Below are positions 3,315 through 50,227 of a stretch of 64,000 bases of DNA, piece by piece. The stretch spans positions 1,116,001 through 1,180,000 of the forward strand of contig JAUFOR010000003.1 of NCBI GenBank assembly GCA_040285745.1. Reading direction: 5' to 3'. The DNA comes from Barthelona sp. PCE (lineage: Eukaryota). A program made the position numbers and the translations under genes. Position 1 is the stretch's first letter, and each line of letters begins with the position of its first letter. The notes beneath the pieces were generated by a model. It made no database searches and had not been told where the DNA came from. It saw only the letters and a list, made by a program, of their open reading frames with translations.

Positions 3315-6300
3315 TCATGAGAACTGACGCATACTGTCTTGTACCTGCTCAAACGTCAGCTCTTGTGTTGGGGCAACTTCGCACTGACCAGCAGGATTGC
3401 AGATGGATGAGAGACACGAGAAACAGAATAAGAAGATGCATGAAGGACACTTCACGCTCTTGCAACCACCATCGTACGTCACCAATGTACAACATCTGGG
3501 ACAAGCACGAACTGATGGTACATTATCAATGCCGTTAATGGTGATGTCAATATCCAGTGCATCCTGCAAGCTTTCATTGAGATCTTCAACATCTTTCGTT
3601 GTATATCGAGAAAGTGTGCGCAGAACATGGAATTTCAAATCACTAGGCATAAAATTGCGAATAGCACTGCGAATAATTTCACCGATACATTGTGCATCGT
3701 TAGGTATGTGCAGCGTGCGTATAACACGACTAACCAATGGCGGTTTCGTGTTGTCATGATGAAATGCCACTGTGAACTGTGATAGTTTGGTCGACCCATT
3801 GAGCCAGTGCACAAAATGAGTTAATTCAAGAGAGTCTAGCCCGTGCAACAGTGTTTCAAAAGATTCCTTTAGATCTTCCGGCATGTCATCGACAAATTTG
3901 AGTGCTTTGAGCACCTTCTCCAATGTGAAACGAGGTGGCTCGCACATGATAGCCTTTATCTCAGTGAACGAACTCAGTTGCTCAGGAAGCTGAAATTCAT
4001 AAAATGTATTGTGAATATCTTCAGACAGTTTGATCCATCCTTCCTTAACGAAATTTTCACGAGCTCGTTGCATGAACTCATTGAGGTTCTCATCAGTGAC
4101 TGGCACGTCTTCACCTCCATAAAGGTTGAAGTTTAGATTATCATCACTGGCAATATTCTGAATGCTGATTGATTGCATAGGAAAAGCCCTTGCAAAAACA
4201 GCAGCATCAGAAAGCTGATCAAAGTCGCAGCTGAGTGCATTAAGAACGAAATTTCCGACTTGTGAATCATCAATGGGTGCCTGGAATACAAGGCAGCAGT
4301 ACAGAAAAGTGCACATATTCTTTACGTCAGTATCTGTTGATTTAGAGGTGATGGGCGGTACCAATCTGTGCTGGAAAAGATATCTGATGTATTGGGTCAG
4401 ATGAAGACGTTGATCGCCAAAAGTAATAATGGCATCTTTAAAAATAGTTCTTCTATCAATGATATAAGTGCGTATACTTCTGAATACCTGAAAAAAGTGC
4501 TCATATTCAATGTTTTCAATATCTTCAATCGCCTGTCTCTCAAGGAAAAACTCGATCATTTCCCTGCGAAGGTCCATATCAAAGTCAATATTCAACTTCA
4601 ACGCCAACTTATAAATGCTCGGTCTTTCAAGTGGTTTTTGCAGTACACATTCGTTTAATATGTCTGAATGAGGCCATAAATCCTGAATATTTGTTGGTGA
4701 ACCAAAAACTCTCCAAATTGTTTTGCCAAGCGAGTAAATGTCACCCATAAACGAGTTTGAATTTCCTTCACTCAATTCGGGCGGAATATACTGCACTGTT
4801 CCAACCCTTGTTGTACTGTTCGTCAGTTTAGGGTCAATACTATCACTAAAATCGCAAAGCTTTATGATTGGGTTGTTACCGTCTTCATCACAGAATACAA
4901 GGGCGTTGTTGGGCTTGATGTCACGCAACATTATTCCCCTTGTGTGCATAGTTAATACGCATTTAATGAGCTGCTTTGCTATGGAGATTTTAGTGTCCTC
5001 ATTTAAATCGGGGAATTCAGTCAAATACTGCTCAAGATCATACGGCGCCCTTTCAAGCTCGAGACAGACAAATTCCAGAGTTGGATCCTCATTTTCTGCC
5101 TCTTTATACACCAATGTAACACCCTTAAGCTCAACTACACATGTATCGAATCGGGTCAGAACCCTCAATTCATGCCTTAAAGACTTTATATTTCTCTCAA
5201 TATTACCATCAAACAGAGTTGATACACAAAAACACTTGCAACATAAATCTTCAGTGATCTGCACTGAGTTCTGCGTTCTAGTAATTCTTAGCCTGCCAAG
5301 AGAATACCTGAGATTAATTACTTTGGGAACAAATGGAAACCTGATACTTGAAAGATTGAGCTCTTCAAGTACACTAATGATATCCACATTCTTAAAACTC
5401 ACTTCACTAATGATTGCATTGAGTGATTGTTGAATATCTGACAATTCAACAATGAGTGCATTCTTTGCTTCACTGAAATAAGTCGTTTCAAGAGCTATGA
5501 TGGGTCGTAAATTTTGAGCAACCTGCTCTTTGATTGAAAATAGCGAATTGAAATCTGTTTTGTTGACAGCGTCATCATCAAACATGATTTGACGAAAATC
5601 TTCCATGTTTTTTTCAATGTCACGCAAATTCATTTTAATTACATTTATCTCACATTTTGTGCTCTGAAATAACACTACTTGATTGTGAATATCGCATAAA
5701 TCGAGATCCAAACACTGGTTATAACAATTAAAGTGAGTATCTAAAACTTTCAACTTCTCCACCATTTCATTTTTCTTTTCTTTATAAAGAATTCTAACTG
5801 TGCGGTTTTCTGCAACAATTGCATTATAATGTAAATCAAATGAGGTGCTTAGATGACTGTCATCAAAACCGTACTTCCTAACAACGCTTTTCAAACTCTT
5901 GACATACTCCTTAGCTAAATTGATGCTTCCTAAATGAACAAACATAGAATCTACGAGAGGTCTCTCGGTCAACCAATTGAAAAAGGATTCTGGGGGCTCT
6001 TTAAGCTGTAAAATCTCAGCAGCACAGTTATTAAAAATATTCATCAACTCAATAACTGATGAAGTTAAAAAACTTTGTTGAATAATTCTTGTATCATGTT
6101 TTGCAACATAACGATCCAATTGTGAAGGTGTTTTGCTCATCTCTGACAGTTTTCTTTCCATTTCCAACATCATTTCAGAAATATGATTTTGGAACATCAA
6201 TTCCATTTCTGATTTTGATACAAATATTGAGCAAAGATCAATAATTGTTGTTTTTGGCATTACATCAATTCTTTTTTGTAACATTAATGTGCGACCAAAT

Positions 6301-7445
6301 CCATCATTCTTGCTCCATTCCACAAGTTCCATTGTTCCATCATCGAATTCAACATAGAACACAGAATTATCATCCTTCTCAACATTGACAATTTTCCCAC
6401 TATGTCGTTCATAGTTTTGGGTGATACAATTTCTCTTCGTTATGTATACCACTTTTGATAAAAAAAACATCAAGTAACCGTCTATAACTGGTTTAGCAAA
6501 GTATATCGAATCATATGAAACATATGATGTACCAAAGTAAAAAAATGAGCTCAATGGAGTTAACAAACCTACAAAATCTTCACTTACAATGTCATAAGCT
6601 GTAGTTGGTCCTGTACAACATAAAGGCACAGTTGCAACAAATATTCCATTTAAAATATTGTAAACTTTTGCTGTTTCAAACTCAGCAACTGTCAAATGTT
6701 GTTCATTCAGTGATATGTAAACATTTTCAACTACATTTTCGAAAAACAAGTCTATCCAAGTTTCCAGATTTCTGTTACATAATATTACTCGCTTGCTGAA
6801 GCCCAACACTAAATATTGCGTTGAAATACAACTTAAAACAGAATCGACTTGCTCAACTAGTTCAAATTCTTTAACTATAACATCACTGCAAGTCTTAAGT
6901 CTTAAAAAATTTTTGCCATTTTTGTGAGAACGTTCCCAAAAATAAATATTCTCTTCATCTTCCATTACATAACCAACTAAACTACTGTCTACATTAATAG
7001 TATCAATAATACCATCCATCATATCATACCGGAATTTAAACACAGTATCGGATGAAAAAGATTCAACATAAAGGAATTCTGAATTAACCCAACATTTCAA
7101 ACCTGAAGCAAACTCAACGCTTGAGATGCAACGTTTGGAATTAATGCTATGTATATGGTACTTTCCACTGCCTTTAAAGGCTAGAAATTGCCCATCACCA
7201 CTGAGACATCCATTACCAACATACTCTGAATCAGTCTCAATTGAATAAATCTTCTCCAATGTAGGTATACGAAACACATAAATATGAGATTGGTGCACCG
7301 TGGCTATTGTACTCTCATCTTTTGATGTCCAATATATATCACAATAATCCTTAAAAGTCAAAATTTTATATTCCATTTGCTCTGTTTGACAATTGTAACG
7401 TTTGACTCTTACAAACCCTTCACTGGTTTTCTCGACCAGTAGCAT
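3315..7445 (-). CDS. Multidomain protein: beta-propeller-like N-terminus, helical/coiled-coil region, protein kinase, HECT-like domain without catalytic Cys, C-terminal RBR Rcat/IBR-type zinc finger
   Basis: 1376 aa ORF. Kinase motifs LRDIKPNN, KLCDFS, GTVQYIPPE, DIYSLG. HECT-like blocks GGEDVPVTDENLNEFM, FTEIKAIMC, FVHWLNGSTKL, PPLVSRVIRTLHIP. Cys pattern CPRC-x8-C-x4-CPSC-x4-CFSC. Confidence 0.85.
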   Translation of the reverse strand: MLLVEKTSEGFVRVKRYNCQTEQMEYKILTFKDYCDIYWTSKDESTIATVHQSHIYVFRIPTLEKIYSIETDSEYVGNGCLSGDGQFLAFKGSGKYHIHSINSKRCISSVEFASGLKCWVNSEFLYVESFSSDTVFKFRYDMMDGIIDTINVDSSLVGYVMEDEENIYFWERSHKNGKNFLRLKTCSDVIVKEFELVEQVDSVLSCISTQYLVLGFSKRVILCNRNLETWIDLFFENVVENVYISLNEQHLTVAEFETAKVYNILNGIFVATVPLCCTGPTTAYDIVSEDFVGLLTPLSSFFYFGTSYVSYDSIYFAKPVIDGYLMFFLSKVVYITKRNCITQNYERHSGKIVNVEKDDNSVFYVEFDDGTMELVEWSKNDGFGRTLMLQKRIDVMPKTTIIDLCSIFVSKSEMELMFQNHISEMMLEMERKLSEMSKTPSQLDRYVAKHDTRIIQQSFLTSSVIELMNIFNNCAAEILQLKEPPESFFNWLTERPLVDSMFVHLGSINLAKEYVKSLKSVVRKYGFDDSHLSTSFDLHYNAIVAENRTVRILYKEKKNEMVEKLKVLDTHFNCYNQCLDLDLCDIHNQVVLFQSTKCEINVIKMNLRDIEKNMEDFRQIMFDDDAVNKTDFNSLFSIKEQVAQNLRPIIALETTYFSEAKNALIVELSDIQQSLNAIISEVSFKNVDIISVLEELNLSSIRFPFVPKVINLRYSLGRLRITRTQNSVQITEDLCCKCFCVSTLFDGNIERNIKSLRHELRVLTRFDTCVVELKGVTLVYKEAENEDPTLEFVCLELERAPYDLEQYLTEFPDLNEDTKISIAKQLIKCVLTMHTRGIMLRDIKPNNALVFCDEDGNNPIIKLCDFSDSIDPKLTNSTTRVGTVQYIPPELSEGNSNSFMGDIYSLGKTIWRVFGSPTNIQDLWPHSDILNECVLQKPLERPSIYKLALKLNIDFDMDLRREMIEFFLERQAIEDIENIEYEHFFQVFRSIRTYIIDRRTIFKDAIITFGDQRLHLTQYIRYLFQHRLVPPITSKSTDTDVKNMCTFLYCCLVFQAPIDDSQVGNFVLNALSCDFDQLSDAAVFARAFPMQSISIQNIASDDNLNFNLYGGEDVPVTDENLNEFMQRARENFVKEGWIKLSEDIHNTFYEFQLPEQLSSFTEIKAIMCEPPRFTLEKVLKALKFVDDMPEDLKESFETLLHGLDSLELTHFVHWLNGSTKLSQFTVAFHHDNTKPPLVSRVIRTLHIPNDAQCIGEIIRSAIRNFMPSDLKFHVLRTLSRYTTKDVEDLNESLQDALDIDITINGIDNVPSVRACPRCCTLVTYDGGCKSVKCPSCIFLFCFSCLSSICNPAGQCEVAPTQELTFEQVQDSMRQFS

Positions 7446-23820: not shown

Positions 23821-24082
23821 TTGATGTGAAAGAAGTCAATAATCGTAATACACGTATTTTATCCGTATCCAAGTATATGAGGGTGACATGTCCCATGACA
23901 TCACATGTAGAAATCGAAAAATGCAGTTGCAGAGAAAGAAATACTTATCTACGCTTATATCATCAATACAGTAATTCTAAGCACTGTGTGAGGACTGAAA
24001 ACATGTATTTACTGTTTTGATGAGTTAAAGTTCTTCAAATTCTGTTTTCTCCAATTTCACCCTTTCACACACTATTTTGGGC

Positions 24083-24493: not shown

Positions 24494-25906
24494 TTACTTT
24501 TCTGTATACCATTCGACACCAAAGCGATCCTTTATGAAAGCATCCTCTCCTTCAACACGAGAGCTACCACCCTTATAATAGTTCATATTAAAGTCATGAT
24601 TCTTCACAAGCACTTGGTCATAAACTCTCCACGACTCTTCAACCTCATATGGGCTCACAAACAGGTCTTGGTTACCATTAATGATATCTAAAAGCATATT
24701 TTCGTAAGCATCAGCAAGATCAGGGTCTTCAACCATATAAGGAAGTGCTTGACGACATGTACCAGTTGCTGAACATCTTCCATTCAGCCACATAGTAATT
24801 TTTTTCTTAGGCTGGATTTCGATTTCAAGGACATTTGGAGGCAAATTTGTACCAATACTGGTTGTTTCAGGTTGTTTAAATACTACCTTAATAACCAACT
24901 TCTTTTCATCCAAGTTCTTGCCTGCTCTGATAATGATAGGAACACCCTCCCATTCTCTGTTGTTTATCTCTAAACCTAGTGTAACAAATGTAGGTGTCTT
25001 GTTACTCTCACCTTCGATGGAAACTGAATCATCTGTATTATAACCCTCATACTGTGCAAAAAAAACGTTTTCTGGAGTAAGTGACTTAATTCTCTTAAGT
25101 ACCTTTAGCTTTTCGTAATGAATACTCTGTGCATCGTCCTTTATAGGCTCTTTCATTGTTAGTAATGTAACAATTTGGGTTAGATGATTCTGAACAACGT
25201 CTGGTAAAACTCCACCAACTCTGTCATAGAAACGGCCTCTGCCCTGAATATCAATTGCTTCACTGAGTGTTATCTGAATTGAATCAACGTGTTTGTTACT
25301 GAACAGATCTGCAAAAATTGCATTACCAAATCTTAAGCTCTGAATACCACTGACAATGTGCTTGAAAAGGTAGTGGTCTACCAAGTATATTTGATCTGGT
25401 GTGAAACTCAACGTCTCTAGTAATTGCACGAATGAGCTCCACGACTGTAGATCTTCACCATGTGGCTTCTCGAGAACTAAGCGAAGTGAGCCATTGGTGG
25501 GATTGCCGCGGTACAGCCCGTCTATGTTTACCAGAGTACCGGGCATAACTTGTGGAGGTAACGAAAAATAATAAATTCTATCTCCACCGTCTTTCTCTTT
25601 CTGACGAAGGAAATAGTCGAGCTCCGCCATATCATCGGACCCATAATAGTCTCCTCTAACGTAATAGACTCTTGCTAAGAAATCTTCAACAATATTCTCA
25701 CAGTCCTGTTCATCAAGAGGACATTTGTTGAGTAGAGTTGTGCGAAGAAGTTCTCTGAATGATTCTGATGTATGCTTTGAACGAGCATATCCGTAGAAAT
25801 ACACGTCATCTGGAAAATAACCCCTTCTAAAGTTGTTAAAAAGGCTTGGAATAACGTACCTTCGGGAGAGATCACCCGATGCACCCAATATAATTATGCT
25901 TAACAT
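24494..25906 (-). CDS. G6PD: Glucose-6-phosphate 1-dehydrogenase (divergent)
   Basis: IIILGASGDL, YGYARS, EKPHG, VDHYLFK, DVVQNHL, WEGVPIIIRAGK, AYENML. Start placed at ATG 25906, immediately before the Rossmann motif. Confidence 0.9.
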   Translation of the reverse strand: MLSIIILGASGDLSRRYVIPSLFNNFRRGYFPDDVYFYGYARSKHTSESFRELLRTTLLNKCPLDEQDCENIVEDFLARVYYVRGDYYGSDDMAELDYFLRQKEKDGGDRIYYFSLPPQVMPGTLVNIDGLYRGNPTNGSLRLVLEKPHGEDLQSWSSFVQLLETLSFTPDQIYLVDHYLFKHIVSGIQSLRFGNAIFADLFSNKHVDSIQITLSEAIDIQGRGRFYDRVGGVLPDVVQNHLTQIVTLLTMKEPIKDDAQSIHYEKLKVLKRIKSLTPENVFFAQYEGYNTDDSVSIEGESNKTPTFVTLGLEINNREWEGVPIIIRAGKNLDEKKLVIKVVFKQPETTSIGTNLPPNVLEIEIQPKKKITMWLNGRCSATGTCRQALPYMVEDPDLADAYENMLLDIINGNQDLFVSPYEVEESWRVYDQVLVKNHDFNMNYYKGGSSRVEGEDAFIKDRFGVEWYTEK

Positions 25907-26345
25907 TGTGATAAGGTGGACAAAAGTAAAACAAAATATTATTTGAGACTTCCAAACATTGGAACAAGTAAATTGCATTTGAGCATATGGTAGTGTGTCA
26001 CGGTGCCCTGAAAGGTTGATATTGACAGTAAAGTCTTTAATCATTAACTTTGTTCTTTATTGATGTCCAAAGCCTAATTTGCTCATACAAAGGTTTAAAT
26101 CATGATCCACTCACATATTAGAGCTACTTTTCCGGAGCTTCCACATATTTACAACGCATAGAAGCGAGATTTAAAACTTTCTTCCTTGAATTTGATAAGC
26201 CAACAATTGACAACATCATAAGGTCAAAGTATCCAATAAGCCTGATCAAACCATGAGAAATAGTAAGGAAAAAAAACTGAGCCATTGTGCGGCGTTATAC
26301 ATTCTCTCACCTATTTTTCAAACTTATACATACAAAACTGCGAAT

Positions 26346-27163: not shown

Positions 27164-28219
27164 TTAAAGATCAAACAACTCTGCAATTTGAGAAGAAATG
27201 CTTCTTTTATCACTTTTAGAAGCTGTGTGTGGTTGTTTAAGTTCTGAACTATTATACAAACTGTTCAAATTTGTCATTTGAGGTTTTTGACTTTTTAACA
27301 TTTCAAATGATGGTGGTTGTTCTCTTTTTTGCTTTTGAGGGGGAGGGATATCAAATGCTATAGGTTTCCTTTTTGGTCGTTGTAAAGTAACCATTGTATC
27401 GTCTACTCTGTTCTTCATCCGCCTTTCTGGGGTGATTGGTGCAGTGTGTGGTCTAACTACCGCATGTTGCTGGACCCGCCTCATCTGTATAGGTGCTGGA
27501 GTTGTATTCGTGGATATCTCAGGCTGTAGCGTATCTGTTTGTGTCTCTATACAAACTTTCATCGACTCCTGGGTTCCCTGTGTCACCATCTGCCTGCGTT
27601 TCGGCGTTATTGGCGGGTTTCCAATTCGATCTAGTGACTGTGTCATATCAGAAGCTGGTGCCAAAGGTGTCATGTGTTGATTTTTCATTTTTACGTTTCT
27701 CAATGTACTAGGCATAGAATGAGATCCAGAAAGAATCCGTTTTGGCGGTGGCAGGTGCTGTAATGTGTTTGGGGTAGAGCTTACTGCTTGTAAAGAAGGG
27801 ACTGATTTATAACTACCCATTTTTGCTTGATAATCATCATCTATCTCTGACTTCAATGACTGTGACACTGTTATAACATTGCCCTTAACGTTGAAAGACA
27901 GTTCATACATGGGGTTAGGTGTTAAAAATGTTACTGTAGCACCGTCCTCAGCATTCTGAAAAATTGCTATATCTTTTATCTCTCCTCCATTAAAATGGAC
28001 TTGATATGTCTTTGGTTCGCCCGCAGATGACTGGATCTCATCTTTTGGTGCCTCCTCAGCCTCTTCCTCAACAGCACTCTCCTCTTCTCCTGATTGTTGT
28101 GAACCTTCTTCATCATATCCCTCACTGTATGCATCATCGTAGTTGCTGTAGGCCCCAGAGTACTCGTCGTAACCCTCTTCACCTGAGTACTCGTCGTATG
28201 GTTCCTCAGAAGAAGACAT
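27164..28219 (-). CDS. Hypothetical low-complexity protein (acidic N-terminus, Pro/Gln/Thr-rich tail)
   Basis: About 351 aa ORF from ATG 28219. Confidence 0.65.
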   Translation of the reverse strand: MSSSEEPYDEYSGEEGYDEYSGAYSNYDDAYSEGYDEEGSQQSGEEESAVEEEAEEAPKDEIQSSAGEPKTYQVHFNGGEIKDIAIFQNAEDGATVTFLTPNPMYELSFNVKGNVITVSQSLKSEIDDDYQAKMGSYKSVPSLQAVSSTPNTLQHLPPPKRILSGSHSMPSTLRNVKMKNQHMTPLAPASDMTQSLDRIGNPPITPKRRQMVTQGTQESMKVCIETQTDTLQPEISTNTTPAPIQMRRVQQHAVVRPHTAPITPERRMKNRVDDTMVTLQRPKRKPIAFDIPPPQKQKREQPPSFEMLKSQKPQMTNLNSLYNSSELKQPHTASKSDKRSISSQIAELFDL

Positions 28220-28480
28220 AGTTAATAAAACACGTTTCACATATTTTCACAGCTGTCCTGAAGTTCACCGTGCACCTTTTGTGTCTGCGCGCATATCTAA
28301 AAAGTTGCAACAAAAAAATACCATGAAGCCTGCGCAAATCCAAAAAAAATACTTTTATTTTATTAACAAGATCAGATCATCTCTTATCGTGATCATGGTC
28401 ATGTAGCTTATTAATATTTACATCACCAACCTCGAAACAATATTATTCAGCAAATAGTGTGCACAAAGACAAACTCCAAC

Positions 28481-28770
28481 GTGTTGCTGAGGTACTACAG
28501 CCGATAGGACTTCGGAGGCTAACTAACTCTGAAGAGCGAATGAATCTCTCTAGATATCGTTCGACTTCTTGTTGCCTCTGGCTGTCTGTTGATGTCTACT
28601 GAGAATAAAGAAGACGAGAAAGAGGTGGAAAACGTAGATTTACGTTTCTTCCCTCTTTTGAGACTTATTATTTTATTTATTTTTAAACTATTGTGGGTGT
28701 AGGTACGAGGTACCTGCGTCCTCAGTAGGCTCGTCTTCTTCTGAATCCCACTCTGAAACTCAGTAAACAC
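28481..28770. ncRNA. Candidate structured non-coding RNA (about 290 nt), family unassigned
   Basis: Intergenic. Terminal complementarity 28481-28491/28759-28770, long hairpin 28497-28585, 11-bp duplex 28608-28618/28730-28740, hairpins about 28619-28658 and 28699-28717. Confidence 0.5.
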
Positions 28771-28771
28771 A

Positions 28772-30651
28772 CTAGCAAGTTTTACTCCTTTGATAGAGTA
28801 ACATGCACTCGAAGTAAGAATCTTGGTCTATACGAATAGAATCATCAACAACTGTGTATTCCGTTATCATAAATTTCTCATTTAACACATCATATTCGTA
28901 ATATTGCGCCTTTTTAGAAGTCACACACAATCTTTTTTCATCGAATTCATCGCTAAAAGCATGCAAACAAATTAGTCCAGCTGACGAAAATCTGAAAATT
29001 CCGTTCTCAAGGACAAATACGGTTTCTGAGAGAAAGCCCAAACATCTACACGGTTCCAAGATAGGGGTAGATTCCCATACGTCTGTTTTATGCCATACGT
29101 GATCTGAAGACACAATCATATCAGTAAAAAACGGGTTTACGCGACAATTACTCGTTGAAAATGGTAACTCCACAACACTCACATCGTCATCATCCCCGCA
29201 TATGTACATATTGCACTCCAATGTTAAAACAACTCTATTTTCAGAAACGTCATGAACAACAAATTGACTATCACAATCACAGATTATATCACAAACACTA
29301 TATGCATTACCTTCATCGGATCTTCTGTGAAAAGAAATGCATCTTAAATATTCATCATCATTCTCAAGCGTTATTTGCTCTAAAAAAACGACATCATTTT
29401 GGAATATAGATAGAACACGATGTTCATCATCTATTGCTGTTGCTCTACAGTCAAACATGGCACATAGTTCACGTTGCTTCCATTTATAATCCCAAAAGTA
29501 CTCATCATCGCCAACACCGAAACAAAAAGAGATGTTCTTATAAAAAATCATGTTTTTCGTCCAAGAAACATTATATACATCATTTTTCACGAATAACATC
29601 TTATTGTGCATGAAATCCAAGAAAAAAAAACCATGTGGCATAAAATAGACAATTCCATCATTAAAAACATAACCAAATTTGGTCAAATTGTAGACAATAG
29701 GCAGCTCTTCAGCCATGTGCACGACGGAATCGCTGTAATATATCACGTTGTTAGAAACAGAAAATACATGCCTGGGTCGAGAAACAAATGAAAATGAGAA
29801 AGGTTCAAAATCTATTACACATGATATTTCAGGAAAACAGCATCTTGTAAACTTAACTACTGGCTCATTTCCTTCCCAAAATAATTCTAAAATCCCTGAT
29901 TTACCAATCAAGAAAAAAACAATCATTCGAAGTACACGACGTTTAACAGAAAATTCCAATAAAAAACATTGTCTAGGCAAATCTACCATTGTTTGCCCAT
30001 TTACCTGAGGAAAAAGTGTCTCTATGTTCATTAATTCAGGCCCTGAATCGGTTATATGAATCAAACTAAATTTTGTATTCATATATAACCACGGAAATAC
30101 AAAAGCTACATCTGAATTTATGGCCGGTACGATCATAGGCATTTCAAAAGGATCAAACAACTCCGTACCAGAATTACTAATGATATTATTAGCAATATTA
30201 TTTTTGTGAAAAAATTTTTTTTCAACAAATACATAATCCCCAATTGGGAAGACATTGGTCAACATCAGATCAATTTCTTCCATGCTAATCCTTTGAATGG
30301 GAGAAGTATTTAACTCAAAAACTATCAAATATGAACGTAAAGCAAATATCAATGCAATTTCCTTTGTTATCATGAAAATATTAATTGTCTCAATTGGTAA
30401 ACAATCGACAATATAAGACGTGACCTCTTTGGTATATATATCAACAAAACAAATTTCAAAACATTGTTAGCCATCACATATAAAGTATGGTCATCCATCC
30501 CTTGACTTTGACATCCATAAGTACTGCAATCTTTAGATTTATCCGTCGTAAATAATCCCAAACATGATTCTGAAACACTAAACTCAAGATTTCCCTCATA
30601 ATTTAAGCTTGTTAGCCCTGTGGGTTCATCAAATGGAATTATTTGAGGCAT
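28772..30651 (-). pseudogene. Beta-rich (propeller-like) protein split by a 1-nt frameshift; paralogue of 31522-33480
   Basis: ORFs 30370-30651 and 28772-30373 join into one 626 aa frame if one base is added near the A4 run at 30458-30461. Shares motifs with 31522-33480. Could be a sequencing error. Confidence 0.65.
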
Positions 30652-31521: not shown

Positions 31522-33480
31522 TCAATTCACAAATATTGTTCTACTATACTCATCATTCTCATCAAATGGGTTATGTAACGACGAAACAAACTTTGCATTG
31601 TAAAAAAATTGCTCTAAACAAAATACTTCCGTTGTAAGCTTCCACTCTTCGTTAACAAACTCAACATTATGAATTACCATGGAATTGCATTCATTGTCGT
31701 ACAGGTAACGACGGTACACCATGGAATCTAAATCTATTTTGGCTTTTTTTCCAGAAAGACCAAACAGCTTAGTTACTTCCAAATTTGATGTGTATCTATA
31801 AACTCCGTCGTACAAGATTACAGTATTTCCATCCAAAAACATTGTTGAGTTGTCTCTTCTAACATTTAAAGTTACACTCTTACCAGTTTCTGCATTATAC
31901 AGAAATCCCTTATTTTCAACGATAAAGAAGTTTGTATTAAAACGATTGACTATCAGATTACCGTAAATAGACTCACAATCGATTTGCACATCTTCTCTTT
32001 CCCAATTATTTAATTCATTTCGAGAAACCGTAACTAAGCTAAAACCACGCACAAAAAAAATAATCTTGTTATCCGATACATATAACTCCCTTGCATACTT
32101 ATCAAAGCGTACAATATCCTCAACCTGTTGGCTTGGAACATGCAACAAATGATGACCATCAGAAACAAACAAAATGGATTCTCTACAACCAGTTATAACT
32201 TTACCCTTCCTTATTGAGACACATGTTGAGAACGCGGAGTTGATCCCCTTTCGAGTATCAACACAATACCATCGATCATCTATTCTAATAACAGGCTGAA
32301 TAATATTGGAACATGTGATTAAACAATCTGTTGAGTTTTTGTTAGGGTGCTTACGCACATACATCACTTCATTTGCTGCAAAATCCAAGAATAACAAACC
32401 ACATGGACTAACATAACACACTGACTTGTTAAAAACTAATGTCATATTAGTAAGATCATTGACTCTAGGGTACAAGATGTTCCTTGAAGCAAGCACTCCG
32501 ATAATATTCAATGTGTTCATTTTAATTTGAAAAGCGTGGTAATATGACAGAGGGTGAATAACAGAAAATTCATGCGAAAAAGGTGTTGTCCTAAAGCAAA
32601 CAGGTTCAATCTCAGTGGTCATGAATGAATATGTGTCTCCAACAACTGTGAGTAATCGCCCCTGTACTTTTTTCCAACCATAAGGAAAAAACAGAATTGA
32701 TAATCGTCGTTCAGTAATACTAAACTCTAAAAGAAATGCCTGAGTAGCTTTAAAACATGGTAGATTTGGAAATATTTCATGCAATGCAATTTCATGTGTT
32801 CCACTATCAAAATAAAAAAGAGAAAAAAAGCGATAATCATCATCTTTTCTAGGTGCTCTTAAAATTGCATTAGTATTATGTAATATATAATAGTTAGCTT
32901 CCTGTGCATGTTCTAACACACGTAATTGTATATTTTCTGATGAAAATCTTTCAATATTTCCAAATTTGCCCAATTTAAGAGATGCAAAATACTCACCTAA
33001 AGAAAAATACTCTAAATCTGACCAAACACCTTCTTCAGTCAACAGATTAACGTTGTTTTCATCGTTTAACTCAAAAAGAAATTGATATCCGTTTGCCATT
33101 CGTATATAACCAGTTCTTTTAGTCGTTAAAAAGAGATAAGAAATTCTATCATATACATATGTCATTTTTTCAACTTCTAATGTGCGAACGTTAACAAAAT
33201 AGACGTTAATCTTATCGTTAAATGATACTTCCGATGCATAAATAATATCTTTATCCCATAAAGCTTGTTGAAACATCTTTAAATCTTTTCCACTGTTAAC
33301 AAGTGTCATTGGGTCACCTTTGAGAGTGAGCGTTACATCAAATTCGTCCAGTGAATCGTATTCTGAAGAATTTTCCAATGGAAGAAACTTTAGTGATGAT
33401 CCACCACCAAAAACAATTGTCCCGAAACAAGAATTACCCAAGTTCACAGTTATAATATCGATATCTGAGATATTTGGCAT
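31522..33480 (-). CDS. Beta-rich (propeller-like) hypothetical protein; paralogue of 28772-30651
   Basis: 652 aa from ATG 33480. FLLEFS, PxGxxFLDF, VNxF and FLxxxxxxLxxGxxR blocks are shared with the upstream copy. Confidence 0.7.
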   Translation of the reverse strand: MPNISDIDIITVNLGNSCFGTIVFGGGSSLKFLPLENSSEYDSLDEFDVTLTLKGDPMTLVNSGKDLKMFQQALWDKDIIYASEVSFNDKINVYFVNVRTLEVEKMTYVYDRISYLFLTTKRTGYIRMANGYQFLFELNDENNVNLLTEEGVWSDLEYFSLGEYFASLKLGKFGNIERFSSENIQLRVLEHAQEANYYILHNTNAILRAPRKDDDYRFFSLFYFDSGTHEIALHEIFPNLPCFKATQAFLLEFSITERRLSILFFPYGWKKVQGRLLTVVGDTYSFMTTEIEPVCFRTTPFSHEFSVIHPLSYYHAFQIKMNTLNIIGVLASRNILYPRVNDLTNMTLVFNKSVCYVSPCGLLFLDFAANEVMYVRKHPNKNSTDCLITCSNIIQPVIRIDDRWYCVDTRKGINSAFSTCVSIRKGKVITGCRESILFVSDGHHLLHVPSQQVEDIVRFDKYARELYVSDNKIIFFVRGFSLVTVSRNELNNWEREDVQIDCESIYGNLIVNRFNTNFFIVENKGFLYNAETGKSVTLNVRRDNSTMFLDGNTVILYDGVYRYTSNLEVTKLFGLSGKKAKIDLDSMVYRRYLYDNECNSMVIHNVEFVNEEWKLTTEVFCLEQFFYNAKFVSSLHNPFDENDEYSRTIFVN

Positions 33481-42470: not shown

Positions 42471-42822
42471 TTGTGAAAAGGTTAATATAAGCGTATTACG
42501 ACCGTATGAAGTTTTAAACTTTTAACTTACTTATTAGATGGCTATCCAGCAGATACATTCAACAACGAGTATTGAGCTGTCTTGTAAAGCGATAAAGACT
42601 ACAATCTGCATGAAAATTTGCAGGTTACTGCTTTCTTAAGATAGTTAAGTTTCACACATATGAAGCACGTTTGAATATATATAGACCATCTTGAAGCAAA
42701 CGATGTCAGTGTAAAACCATCTGATGTATTGAAGAATTTATATCTACCCTTCTCAAGGTTTTGACGTATCACACACATTTGCTTTCACCCCGTTATCCGC
42801 ATTATACAAATTAAAAGAAACA

Positions 42823-49342: not shown

Positions 49343-50227
49343 AGTTAGAGTGTTAAAATGGAAGCGAAAAGTTTAGATAAGGGGGGGAATTGTAGCTTCA
49401 ACTTCACATTTACTTTTACTTAATGAAATAAGGCTATAGATAGTTAACTTCTTACTTGCACCATATATGAGTGCAAAAATCCCTTGTTTACTTGCCAAAG
49501 ATAAAATAATTTTTCAAGTTACTGTTCTCACATATCGACAATTAAGTCCTGTTTCACATGATAATGAGGTACAAAATCCTCAGCGATACTTTAGGGAGAG
49601 AACAGCAAAAAAACCCGGCTTGGAGCTTTAATTCCTTTTCAAAGTGCATTTTTTAGTCATCAGCAGTGGAATGACATATGCTAGATATTTGCGCACTTTT
49701 TCACGAATAAGTATGTATGGAATACACGTCTAATATGTGCACTACTTTTGTTGCAATTAATGTTTCCCTATTAGTCAATTCACTAAGCTTTACATCGTTT
49801 TCCGGTATGGGAGACTGTCTTTAGCTTAAACAACAAGCTCAGTTTGTGGTTTTTTTAGGAATACAATTTAGGAACGACCCAGATATTTATGCCAGTTGAC
49901 CACTACTAATCCACAGAAGTGATGAAAATACGATGCCTAAGCACGTTTTTATTGACATATTCTAATAGTATCTAGCTAATTTTTCCTAAATAATCGGAAT
50001 ACTTTCCAAAACTTCAAGAAGAGTTTCACTGCCGAAATTGAGTTGAATCAACTGTTGTCAGTTAAGTAAAATCTGCAAAATTTCCAATTACCTTTATCAA
50101 AGGTTCTTTGCACTTGTTTTTATTTATTAAACGGATAACAAACGACCCAAGTGCATTCAGCTTTATCTATCAAAACTTTATAGACTCTATTCGTTGCACA
50201 AACTCATCCTTTTTTTTTTTTACATTT

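Follow-up and report, generated by a model that had tools for sequence, protein, structure and literature searches.

A strongly folded 290-nt intergenic element in Barthelona sp. PCE, a candidate for a lineage-specific structured non-coding RNA

The DNA analysed here, in the following called the window, is a stretch of 64 kb which is compact and intron-poor, with 88% coding sequence under the standard code and 12% intergenic DNA. Its genes use TAA, TAG and TGA as stop codons, and their products include a kinesin, a cullin, a homeodomain protein, RPC4 and an axonemal protein of the Casc1 type, a set which marks the host as a flagellate. Two protein genes of the minus strand (27164-28219 and 28772-30373) flank a spacer of 552 bp, and the right half of this spacer is occupied by the candidate ncRNA element on the plus strand (28481-28770, 290 nt). 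The element ends 1 nt from the TAG stop codon (28772-28774) of gene 28772-30373. Within the spacer there is no plus-strand ORF of at least 50 aa, and the sole ORF on the minus strand comprises 83 aa and begins with GTG; a tRNA gene is not present. The GC content of the element is 42%, higher than in the intergenic DNA as a whole (31.8%) and in the 260 nt next to it (34%), and the spacer holding it is the most GC-rich among the 30 spacers of the window. Neither a second copy nor a fragment of the element was found in the 64 kb, the longest secondary matches having at most 16 nt. Beyond the window, a 25-base pattern derived from the element had no match in metagenome contigs or viral contigs.

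Several genes in the vicinity and elsewhere in the window deserve a remark of their own. Gene 28772-30373 and gene 31522-33480, both on the minus strand, are orphans and distantly paralogous to each other, with 26% identity over 274 aa (E 1e-10). In the alignment, the shorter paralogue sets in at residue 118 of the longer one, so that it may lack the N-terminus. A 93-aa ORF (30370-30651, minus strand) overlaps the start of the shorter paralogue by 4 nt and shows no similarity to the N-terminus of the other (E 41). No relative of this family was found in a collection of 5.8 billion protein clusters, where the 533-aa neighbour protein matched only itself. A search of the ESM Atlas gave sub-threshold leads only, and for the NlpC/P60 neighbour no relative was found in the PDB at E up to 0.001. 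The ORF of glucose-6-phosphate dehydrogenase (24494-26044, minus strand) has its first codon 46 codons ahead of the conserved N-terminus, GASGDL; judged from this sequence, the true start is therefore probably the ATG at 25906. A pattern search of metagenome contigs based on this gene delivered 23 matches, none of them a relative. At the left edge, the tandem large ORFs 1-2721 and 3315-7445 (both minus strand) have similar N-termini. In the complete one of the two (1376 aa), a protein kinase domain occurs together with weak matches to HECT and IBR, which is unusual. The largest spacer of the window (49343-50227, 885 bp) is free of ORFs, and Rfam gives no family there at E up to 5. Its minus strand bears ACCTTTGATAAA at 50093-50104, from where it is about 750 nt to the next downstream ATG on that strand. 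This spacer could hold another unannotated transcript.

The original prediction for this locus was made from the sequence alone, and every helix named in it was found, by reading the sequence and from the pair list of a ViennaRNA fold. As proposed, the two ends are complementary and form a closing helix, in which GTGTTGCTGAG (28481-28491) pairs with CTCAGTAAACAC (28759-28770) by 11 bp including one bulged A and one G-U pair. The 5′ strand of this helix, X1 (GUGUUGCUGAG, 28481-28491), has its partner at 28759-28770 in the minimum free energy (MFE) structure, with a mean pair probability of 0.84. It is followed by domain 1, the long irregular hairpin H2, which had been placed at 28497-28585 and was folded at 28498-28591 (94 nt, 35 bp, 5 G-U pairs). 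H2 contains the segments GGAGGC/GCCUCU, GAAG/CUUC, CGAAUGA/UCGUUCG and AUCU/AGAU and is capped by the apical loop CUCU. The hinge segment X2 (GUCUACUGAG, 28594-28603) is complementary to two segments near the 3′ end, Y1 and Y2. Domain 2 is a three-way junction of 133 nt (28608-28740), closed by 11 perfect base pairs of AAGAAGACGAG with CUCGUCUUCUU. The closing strands of this domain are B, which is purine-rich (28608-28618, mean pair probability 0.95), and B′ (28730-28740), whose first base, 28730, is common to Y1 (28721-28730). Between them lie hairpin H3a (28619-28658, 17 bp, loop GAUU), a U-rich junction tract of 29 nt that is unpaired in every fold (28659-28687), and hairpin H3b (28688-28728), with 6 + 12 bp, 5 G-U pairs, loop GAG and pair probabilities of 0.97-1.0. 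The hairpin at 28619-28658, the U-rich tract and the pairing of GUAGGUAC with GUACCUGC had all been named before, and all were found. A 3′ tail (CUGAAUCCCACUCUGAAA, 28741-28758), unpaired or weakly paired in every fold, leads to Y2 (28759-28770), the 3′ strand of the closing helix, which stops 1 nt short of the neighbouring TAG codon.

This structure is beyond chance and outstanding for the window. The plus strand of 28481-28770 folds with an MFE of -98.9 kcal/mol, whereas shuffled controls reach -72.5 kcal/mol on average (z -5.41) and 0 of 200 shuffles are as good; for the minus strand, the MFE is -80.6 kcal/mol (z -3.96, likewise 0 of 200). Of the 95 bp in the plus-strand MFE structure, 56 have a probability above 0.9. 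Domain 2 reaches a z-score of -6.5, and both domains adopt identical folds in contexts of 290, 490 and 540 nt. When the whole window was scanned in 200-nt windows on both strands (1277 per strand, energy regressed on GC content), the three most over-structured plus-strand windows were 28551-28750 (z -4.4), 28601-28800 (z -4.05) and 28501-28700 (z -3.1), all of which lie on the element. The single stems differ in their weight. An 11-bp Watson-Crick stem is reached in only 0.5% of 1000 dinucleotide shuffles, whereas 24% of them contain a stem of 10 bp or more that is free of interruptions and has no more than one G-U pair, and 3.5% contain two such stems; the crossed 10-bp helix discussed below is weaker evidence of structure than the 11-bp stem.

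The segments X1 (28481-28491), X2 (28594-28603), Y1 (28721-28730) and Y2 (28759-28770) are mutually complementary. CTCAGTA, which had been noticed to occur twice, is found at 28721 and 28759. X2 can pair with Y1 by 10 bp or with 9 of 10 positions at 28759-28768, in Y2. The first of these options corresponds to a helix of the original prediction, in which GTCTACTGAG (28594-28603) is complementary to CTCAGTAGGC (28721-28730) by 10 bp with 1 G-U pair. Together with the complementarity of AAGAAGACGAG (28608-28618) to CTCGTCTTCTT (28730-28740) over 11 Watson-Crick base pairs, it does give the crossed order A-B-A′-B′ described there. The pseudoknot suggested by this order is not supported: Y1 and B′ overlap at base 28730 without a linker, and the ensemble treats X2.Y1 and B.B′ as alternatives. 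In the ensemble, X2.Y1 has a probability of about 0 and X2.Y2 one of about 0.08, and enforcing X2.Y1 costs 5.9 kcal/mol (-93.0 kcal/mol versus the MFE of -98.9 kcal/mol). In longer contexts, X2.Y2 replaces X1.Y2 as closing helix. Thus the crossed pair X2.Y1/B.B′ is best read, as far as the modelled ensemble goes, as a set of alternatives, and the closing helix is not fixed. ViennaRNA scoring covers nested structures and leaves out pseudoknots, so that a strained knot may still form.

Regarding the coding strand of the putative RNA, the plus strand is favoured, not proven. H2 scores z -3.26 on the plus strand (1 of 200 shuffles as good) versus z -1.42 on the minus strand (16 of 200), and H3b z -4.65 (0 of 200) versus z -1.98 (7 of 200). 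Scores are equal on both strands for H3a (z -4.44 on plus and -4.21 on minus) and for domain 2 as a whole. A bias of G-U pairs towards the plus strand had been claimed and is seen in the MFE structures, with 11 G-U pairs on plus against 5 on minus. The plus-strand fold has C × U as its sole 1x1 mismatch and not a single A-C opposition. If this fold is imposed on the minus strand, 11 pairs and 42 kcal/mol are lost, leaving -56.6 kcal/mol. After regression on the (G+T)-(A+C) skew, the energy difference between plus and minus is not significant (residual z -0.5 to -1.6). By our arithmetic, Watson-Crick pairs contribute nothing to this skew, while the 11 G-U pairs make up 22 of the element's excess of 30. 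Since the G-U pairs supply much of the skew, this control partly removes the signal under test.

Signals of transcription were searched for by comparison with the other genes of the window. Half of the genes (18 of 36) have CCTTT in the 70 nt that precede the ATG, compared to 8% of random 70-nt windows, and the word often appears as CCTTT(T)CAC(A) or CCTTT(T)CA(C/T), for example at 42481 and 56155 on the minus strand and at 24060 and 60953 on the plus strand. These upstream words match the core promoter of Trichomonas vaginalis, which consists of m5 (CCTTT) and Inr (HCAHW) according to a passage of PMC7370421. By this motif, the host may be parabasalid-like. The word TTTCACA is about five-fold enriched in spacers (12 copies in the 12% intergenic DNA, 16 in the 88% coding DNA). 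Two copies, at 28235 and 28245 on the plus strand (28235-28251), are not followed by any plus-strand ORF within 2.6 kb downstream, and it is possible, as we infer from their position, that this pair is the initiator-type start of a longer plus-strand precursor. A clear promoter or 3′ end signal directly adjoining the element was not found. Between the TTTCACA motifs and the element there is a weak Rfam match to U6 on the plus strand (28279-28361, 12.9 bits versus a gathering score of 44, E 3.8), which is most likely noise. The word GCGCAAAT, with one copy at 28332 upstream of the element and one in spacer 49343-50227, was considered as a shared promoter word and rejected: two copies only, in the two largest spacers, correspond to chance for an 8-mer, and their arrangements differ. 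TATCGT occurs on the plus strand at 28385-28390 and at 28554-28559; the second site lies in H2, and the minus strand gives GAACGATA there. By chance, a spacer like this one should hold about 0.3 copies, and we take these words to resemble the Myb recognition elements of T. vaginalis promoters.

At the other side of the element, the 3′ end of the neighbouring gene has to be considered. Most genes, 27 of 36, have a TAAA within the first 40 nt after the stop codon. Past the stop of gene 28772-30373 on the minus strand, the first TAAA is 89 nt away, in the complement of the U-rich tract. T. vaginalis uses a poly(A) signal of the TAAA type. If the host does so as well, the mRNA of gene 28772-30373 would end inside the element, and the composition of the U-rich tract may be due to the TAAA-rich 3′ end region of this neighbour. 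The pairing partners of B′, Y2 and H3b would be located beyond this likely poly(A) site. Because these partners would lie past the mRNA 3′ end and promoter motifs stand at most 70 nt from the ATGs, the fold is hard to assign to the UTR of either neighbour.

A comparison with known RNA families was carried out with Rfam release 15 and by motif searches. The whole 64-kb window gave zero matches at gathering score. At the relaxed threshold of E up to 10, no known family was found: eight chance-level matches were obtained for 901 nt (the best with 18 bits versus a gathering score of 50) and four for 361 nt. Among these matches, RNase P, MRP, SRP, U3 and telomerase RNA are absent, and no snRNA match falls inside the element. 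In nuclear RNase P RNA, CR-V (ACNNNANNNNGNNUA) pairs with CR-I as P4, and P3 is situated between P2 and P4. CR-V has no exact match here, and the plus-strand sites with one mismatch (28687 and 28769) lie off the 3′ strands of both crossed helices. For RNase MRP RNA, a passage of PMC1796607 gives a search consensus for P4 with 5′P4 gaaAGuCCCC and 3′P4 acnnnanGGGGCUnannnu at a distance of 80-500 nt and at most two deviations in all; in 28400-28850 on the plus strand, the best matches deviate at 4 of the 10 positions specified for 5′P4 and at 4 of the 11 specified for 3′P4. In T. vaginalis, P RNA (251 nt) and MRP RNA (222 nt) were found via these conserved regions (a passage of PMC3228867), so that a P or MRP RNA of a relative should be recognisable. 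Neither the MRP model (RF00030) nor the nuclear RNase P model (RF00009) gave any score, both in the 64 kb at gathering score and in the 901 and 361 nt at E up to 10.

Helix 8 of SRP RNA is marked by a GNAR tetraloop and conserved bases in an internal loop. None of the terminal loops of the element (CUCU, GAUU and GAG) is of the GNAR type, and GNARNNAGCA has no match on the plus strand inside it at up to one mismatch. U3 and other box C/D RNAs carry box C or C′ (RUGAUGA) and box D (CUGA) joined by a terminal stem, with box A at the 5′ end. The best plus-strand match to RTGATGA has two mismatches and the closest box A-like 12-mer at least four, and a U3 match in Rfam is lacking. A telomerase RNA contains a single-stranded template complementary to about 1.5 telomere repeats. 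Templates for TTAGGG, TAGGG, TTTAGGG and TTGGGG, repeats which may not be those of the host, are absent, with at least two to three mismatches in 9-10 positions. The parabasalid telomere repeat is not stated in passages of PMC13735942, PMC8767320 and PMC12589397, and our literature search, as far as its excerpts reach, found no paper on a trichomonad telomerase RNA.

Further classes of small RNA were also considered. snRNAs of the Sm class have an Sm site (RAUUUUUGR) between hairpins and are distinguished by the U1 5′ end, the U2 branch-point site, the U5 loop and the U6 ACAGAGA box. The best Sm-like site is UAUUUUUAA at 28678 with two mismatches, and none of the other motifs is matched exactly on the plus strand inside the element: GTAGTA of U2 (28492) and ACAGAGA of U6 (28598) occur with one mismatch, U5 and U1 motifs with at least two. 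A box H/ACA snoRNA consists of a hairpin, an ANANNA hinge, and a second hairpin directly followed by ACA 3 nt from the 3′ end. By eye, AGAAUA (28602-28607) stands between the domains, and the first ACA (28767-28771) is located 26 nt past domain 2. It directly follows the alternative helix X2.Y2, and that fold leaves no hinge; an Rfam match to H/ACA RNAs was not obtained for 901 and 361 nt at E up to 10. In Giardia, a 12-nt motif for ncRNA 3′ processing, [TAC]C[CA]TT[TC][ATC][CTA]T[CTA]AA, is placed at or just after the 3′ end (a passage of PMC3510501). Here, TCCTTTGATAGA at 28786-28797 fits it in 10 of 12 positions only, and its CCTTT is a common promoter word in the window; it was rejected. 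The same applies to a reading as intron of the plus strand (GUAC at the 5′ and AACACACUAG at the 3′ end), for which no flanking plus-strand exon ORFs are seen by eye. The intron motif of the T. vaginalis type (ACTAACACACAG) is matched nowhere in the window with fewer than two mismatches. A hammerhead-like arrangement of CUGAAGAG and CGAA in H2 was dismissed as well, as no GAAA follows stem II (by eye) and no ribozyme match exists in Rfam. Transcription by RNA polymerase III, for which a box B-like GTTCGA and T-run terminators were considered, was rejected too, since the RNA would then lack B′ and Y2; the internal T4 and T5 runs argue against this polymerase.

From these results, we tentatively read 28481-28770 as a stand-alone, lineage-specific structured ncRNA of the plus strand that belongs to no known family, a reading of the predicted fold to which we give somewhat less than an even chance. 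The original proposal of a candidate ncRNA, possibly a new one, is retained with regard to its exceptional structure, the preference for the plus strand, its GC enrichment, its non-coding character and its single copy in the window. Its other part, a divergent member of a known family, did not find support. Such an RNA would be built of two independently stable domains, the irregular hairpin of 94 nt and the three-way junction of 133 nt, and its ends would be joined by the terminal helix X1.Y2 or alternatively X2.Y2. RNA polymerase II might transcribe it, perhaps from the TTTCACA motifs about 240 nt upstream, and the precursor would then be trimmed. The paired ends could protect it against exonucleases, and the loops and the U-rich junction could serve as platforms for protein binding, which would fit a role as RNP scaffold and not one in long antisense pairing. 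We count against this reading that B.B′ and H3a are perfect Watson-Crick palindromes, equal on both strands and resembling inverted repeats in DNA.

These palindromes are the starting point of an alternative which we regard as unlikely: the element could act as DNA and not as RNA. Its inverted repeats would then be clustered as a foldback or MITE-like remnant, or as palindromic sites for protein binding, in a long spacer where gene 28772-30373 has its terminator and gene 27164-28219 its promoter. Consistent with this, the termini form an imperfect inverted repeat of 11-12 nt, each hairpin has apical parts that, like B.B′ and H3a, are perfect Watson-Crick palindromes with equal z on both strands, and the whole minus strand still folds better than its shuffles (z -3.96). 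However, the excess of 11 G-U pairs over 0 A-C in the plus-strand fold, as well as the loss of stable H2 and H3b hairpins on the minus strand, would not be expected from a strand-neutral decay of palindromes. In addition, no target-site duplication beyond a 2-nt AC was detected, the 64 kb contain no second copy or fragment, and three local hairpins plus long-range helices take the place of one long foldback. Typical MITEs are AT-rich, whereas the GC content of the element exceeds the intergenic level. Structure on the minus strand could also belong to an mRNA, either to the 3′ UTR of gene 28772-30373 or to a long 5′ UTR of gene 27164-28219. The element begins 1 nt past the TAG stop on that strand, and with no TAAA until 89 nt downstream the mRNA probably runs into it; the minus-strand z-score of -3.96 would agree as well. 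Nevertheless, we consider this very unlikely. On the minus strand, neither H2 (z -1.42) nor H3b (z -1.98) reaches significance, and B′ has its partner on the far side of the A-rich tract, the likely 3′ end of the mRNA. Moreover, a 5′ UTR of 260-550 nt would be atypical where CCTTT-type motifs are at most 70 nt from the ATG in 18 of 36 genes.

Two other explanations assign the element to a known class of RNA. There is a small chance that it is a hairpin precursor from which Dicer would release small regulatory RNAs, for the most part out of the 94-nt hairpin. Small-RNA precursors typically have very negative z-scores, and H2, an imperfect hairpin of about 35 bp, has a suitable size and a strongly negative z. 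On the other hand, the stems of H3a (17 bp) and H3b (18 bp) do not have the length needed for Dicer products, long-range helices and a three-way junction are foreign to precursor clusters, and the only match to a microRNA family in Rfam is noise (MIR529, 13.5 bits versus a gathering score of 75). A highly divergent RNase P/MRP, SRP, U3 or telomerase RNA, as brought forward in the original prediction, seems remote. The length of about 290 nt, the paired ends and the multi-domain fold recall such RNAs, the crossed order of helices recalls P2/P4 and the U-rich tract near the purine-rich helix recalls telomerase pseudoknots, all of which are resemblances only. Against them stand the missing Rfam matches to these families, an MRP P4 consensus missed by 4 and 4 positions, a hairpin position unlike that of P3, the lack of a GNAR loop, at best two mismatches to box C and the absence of the four telomere templates. 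It also weighs against this explanation that in T. vaginalis, which has similar promoter motifs, the P and MRP RNAs were found via conserved regions (a passage of PMC3228867). As a long shot, the element might be the RNA subunit of an essential RNP, with telomerase RNA as the obvious candidate, or a bistable switch with the B.B′ and X2.Y1 folds as its two states. For a telomerase RNA, the enclosing helix would act as core-enclosing helix, the purine-rich helix and the U-rich strand would provide the pseudoknot/triplex region, and the three-way junction would correspond to the stem-terminus element.

If the stand-alone ncRNA we tentatively propose is transcribed, it would represent a new family of mid-size structured RNAs in poorly studied flagellated protists. 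In organisms such as this host, standard covariance models recover the most conserved RNAs only. With its very strong and well-defined fold, the element lends itself to Northern blotting, RACE, structure probing and pull-down, and it could serve to build a covariance model for use on related genomes. Furthermore, it is a reasonable first place to look for the missing RNP RNAs of this lineage, including telomerase RNA.

Compared with known systems, the element shares with RNase P and MRP RNAs the size class of 220-340 nt, the paired ends, a long irregular 5′ hairpin and a crossed A-B-A′-B′ order like that of P2/P4. It differs from them in that its long hairpin precedes the P2-like strand and both 5′ strands, whereas P3 sits between P2 and P4, in that it has no CR-I/CR-V (P4) consensus, and in that its 3′ strands abut and behave as alternatives. 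With SRP RNA it has in common a length of about 300 nt and a long-range helix around two hairpins, comparable to helices 6 and 8 of the S domain, but it is without the GNAR/helix-8 motif and has a 94-nt hairpin in place of an Alu domain or helix 5. Telomerase RNA is resembled by the enclosing helix, a possible pseudoknot next to U-rich and purine-rich strands and the three-way junction domain, but the four common templates are missing and the only short-period repeat of the element (CUAACUAAC) is partly base-paired. MITEs or foldback transposons are similar in length (about 290 bp), in the terminal inverted repeat of 11-12 nt and in strong folding on both strands; in contrast to these, the element has several local hairpins, strand-asymmetric G-U pairs and no other copy in the window. 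T. vaginalis possesses promoter-driven intergenic long non-coding RNAs, for which no compact, highly stable multi-helix fold is known. The element, in turn, is known here from its structure and not from expression. What it shares with these transcripts is an intergenic position apart from its neighbours, a genomic setting with promoters of the m5/Inr type, and TTTCACA motifs upstream on the same strand.
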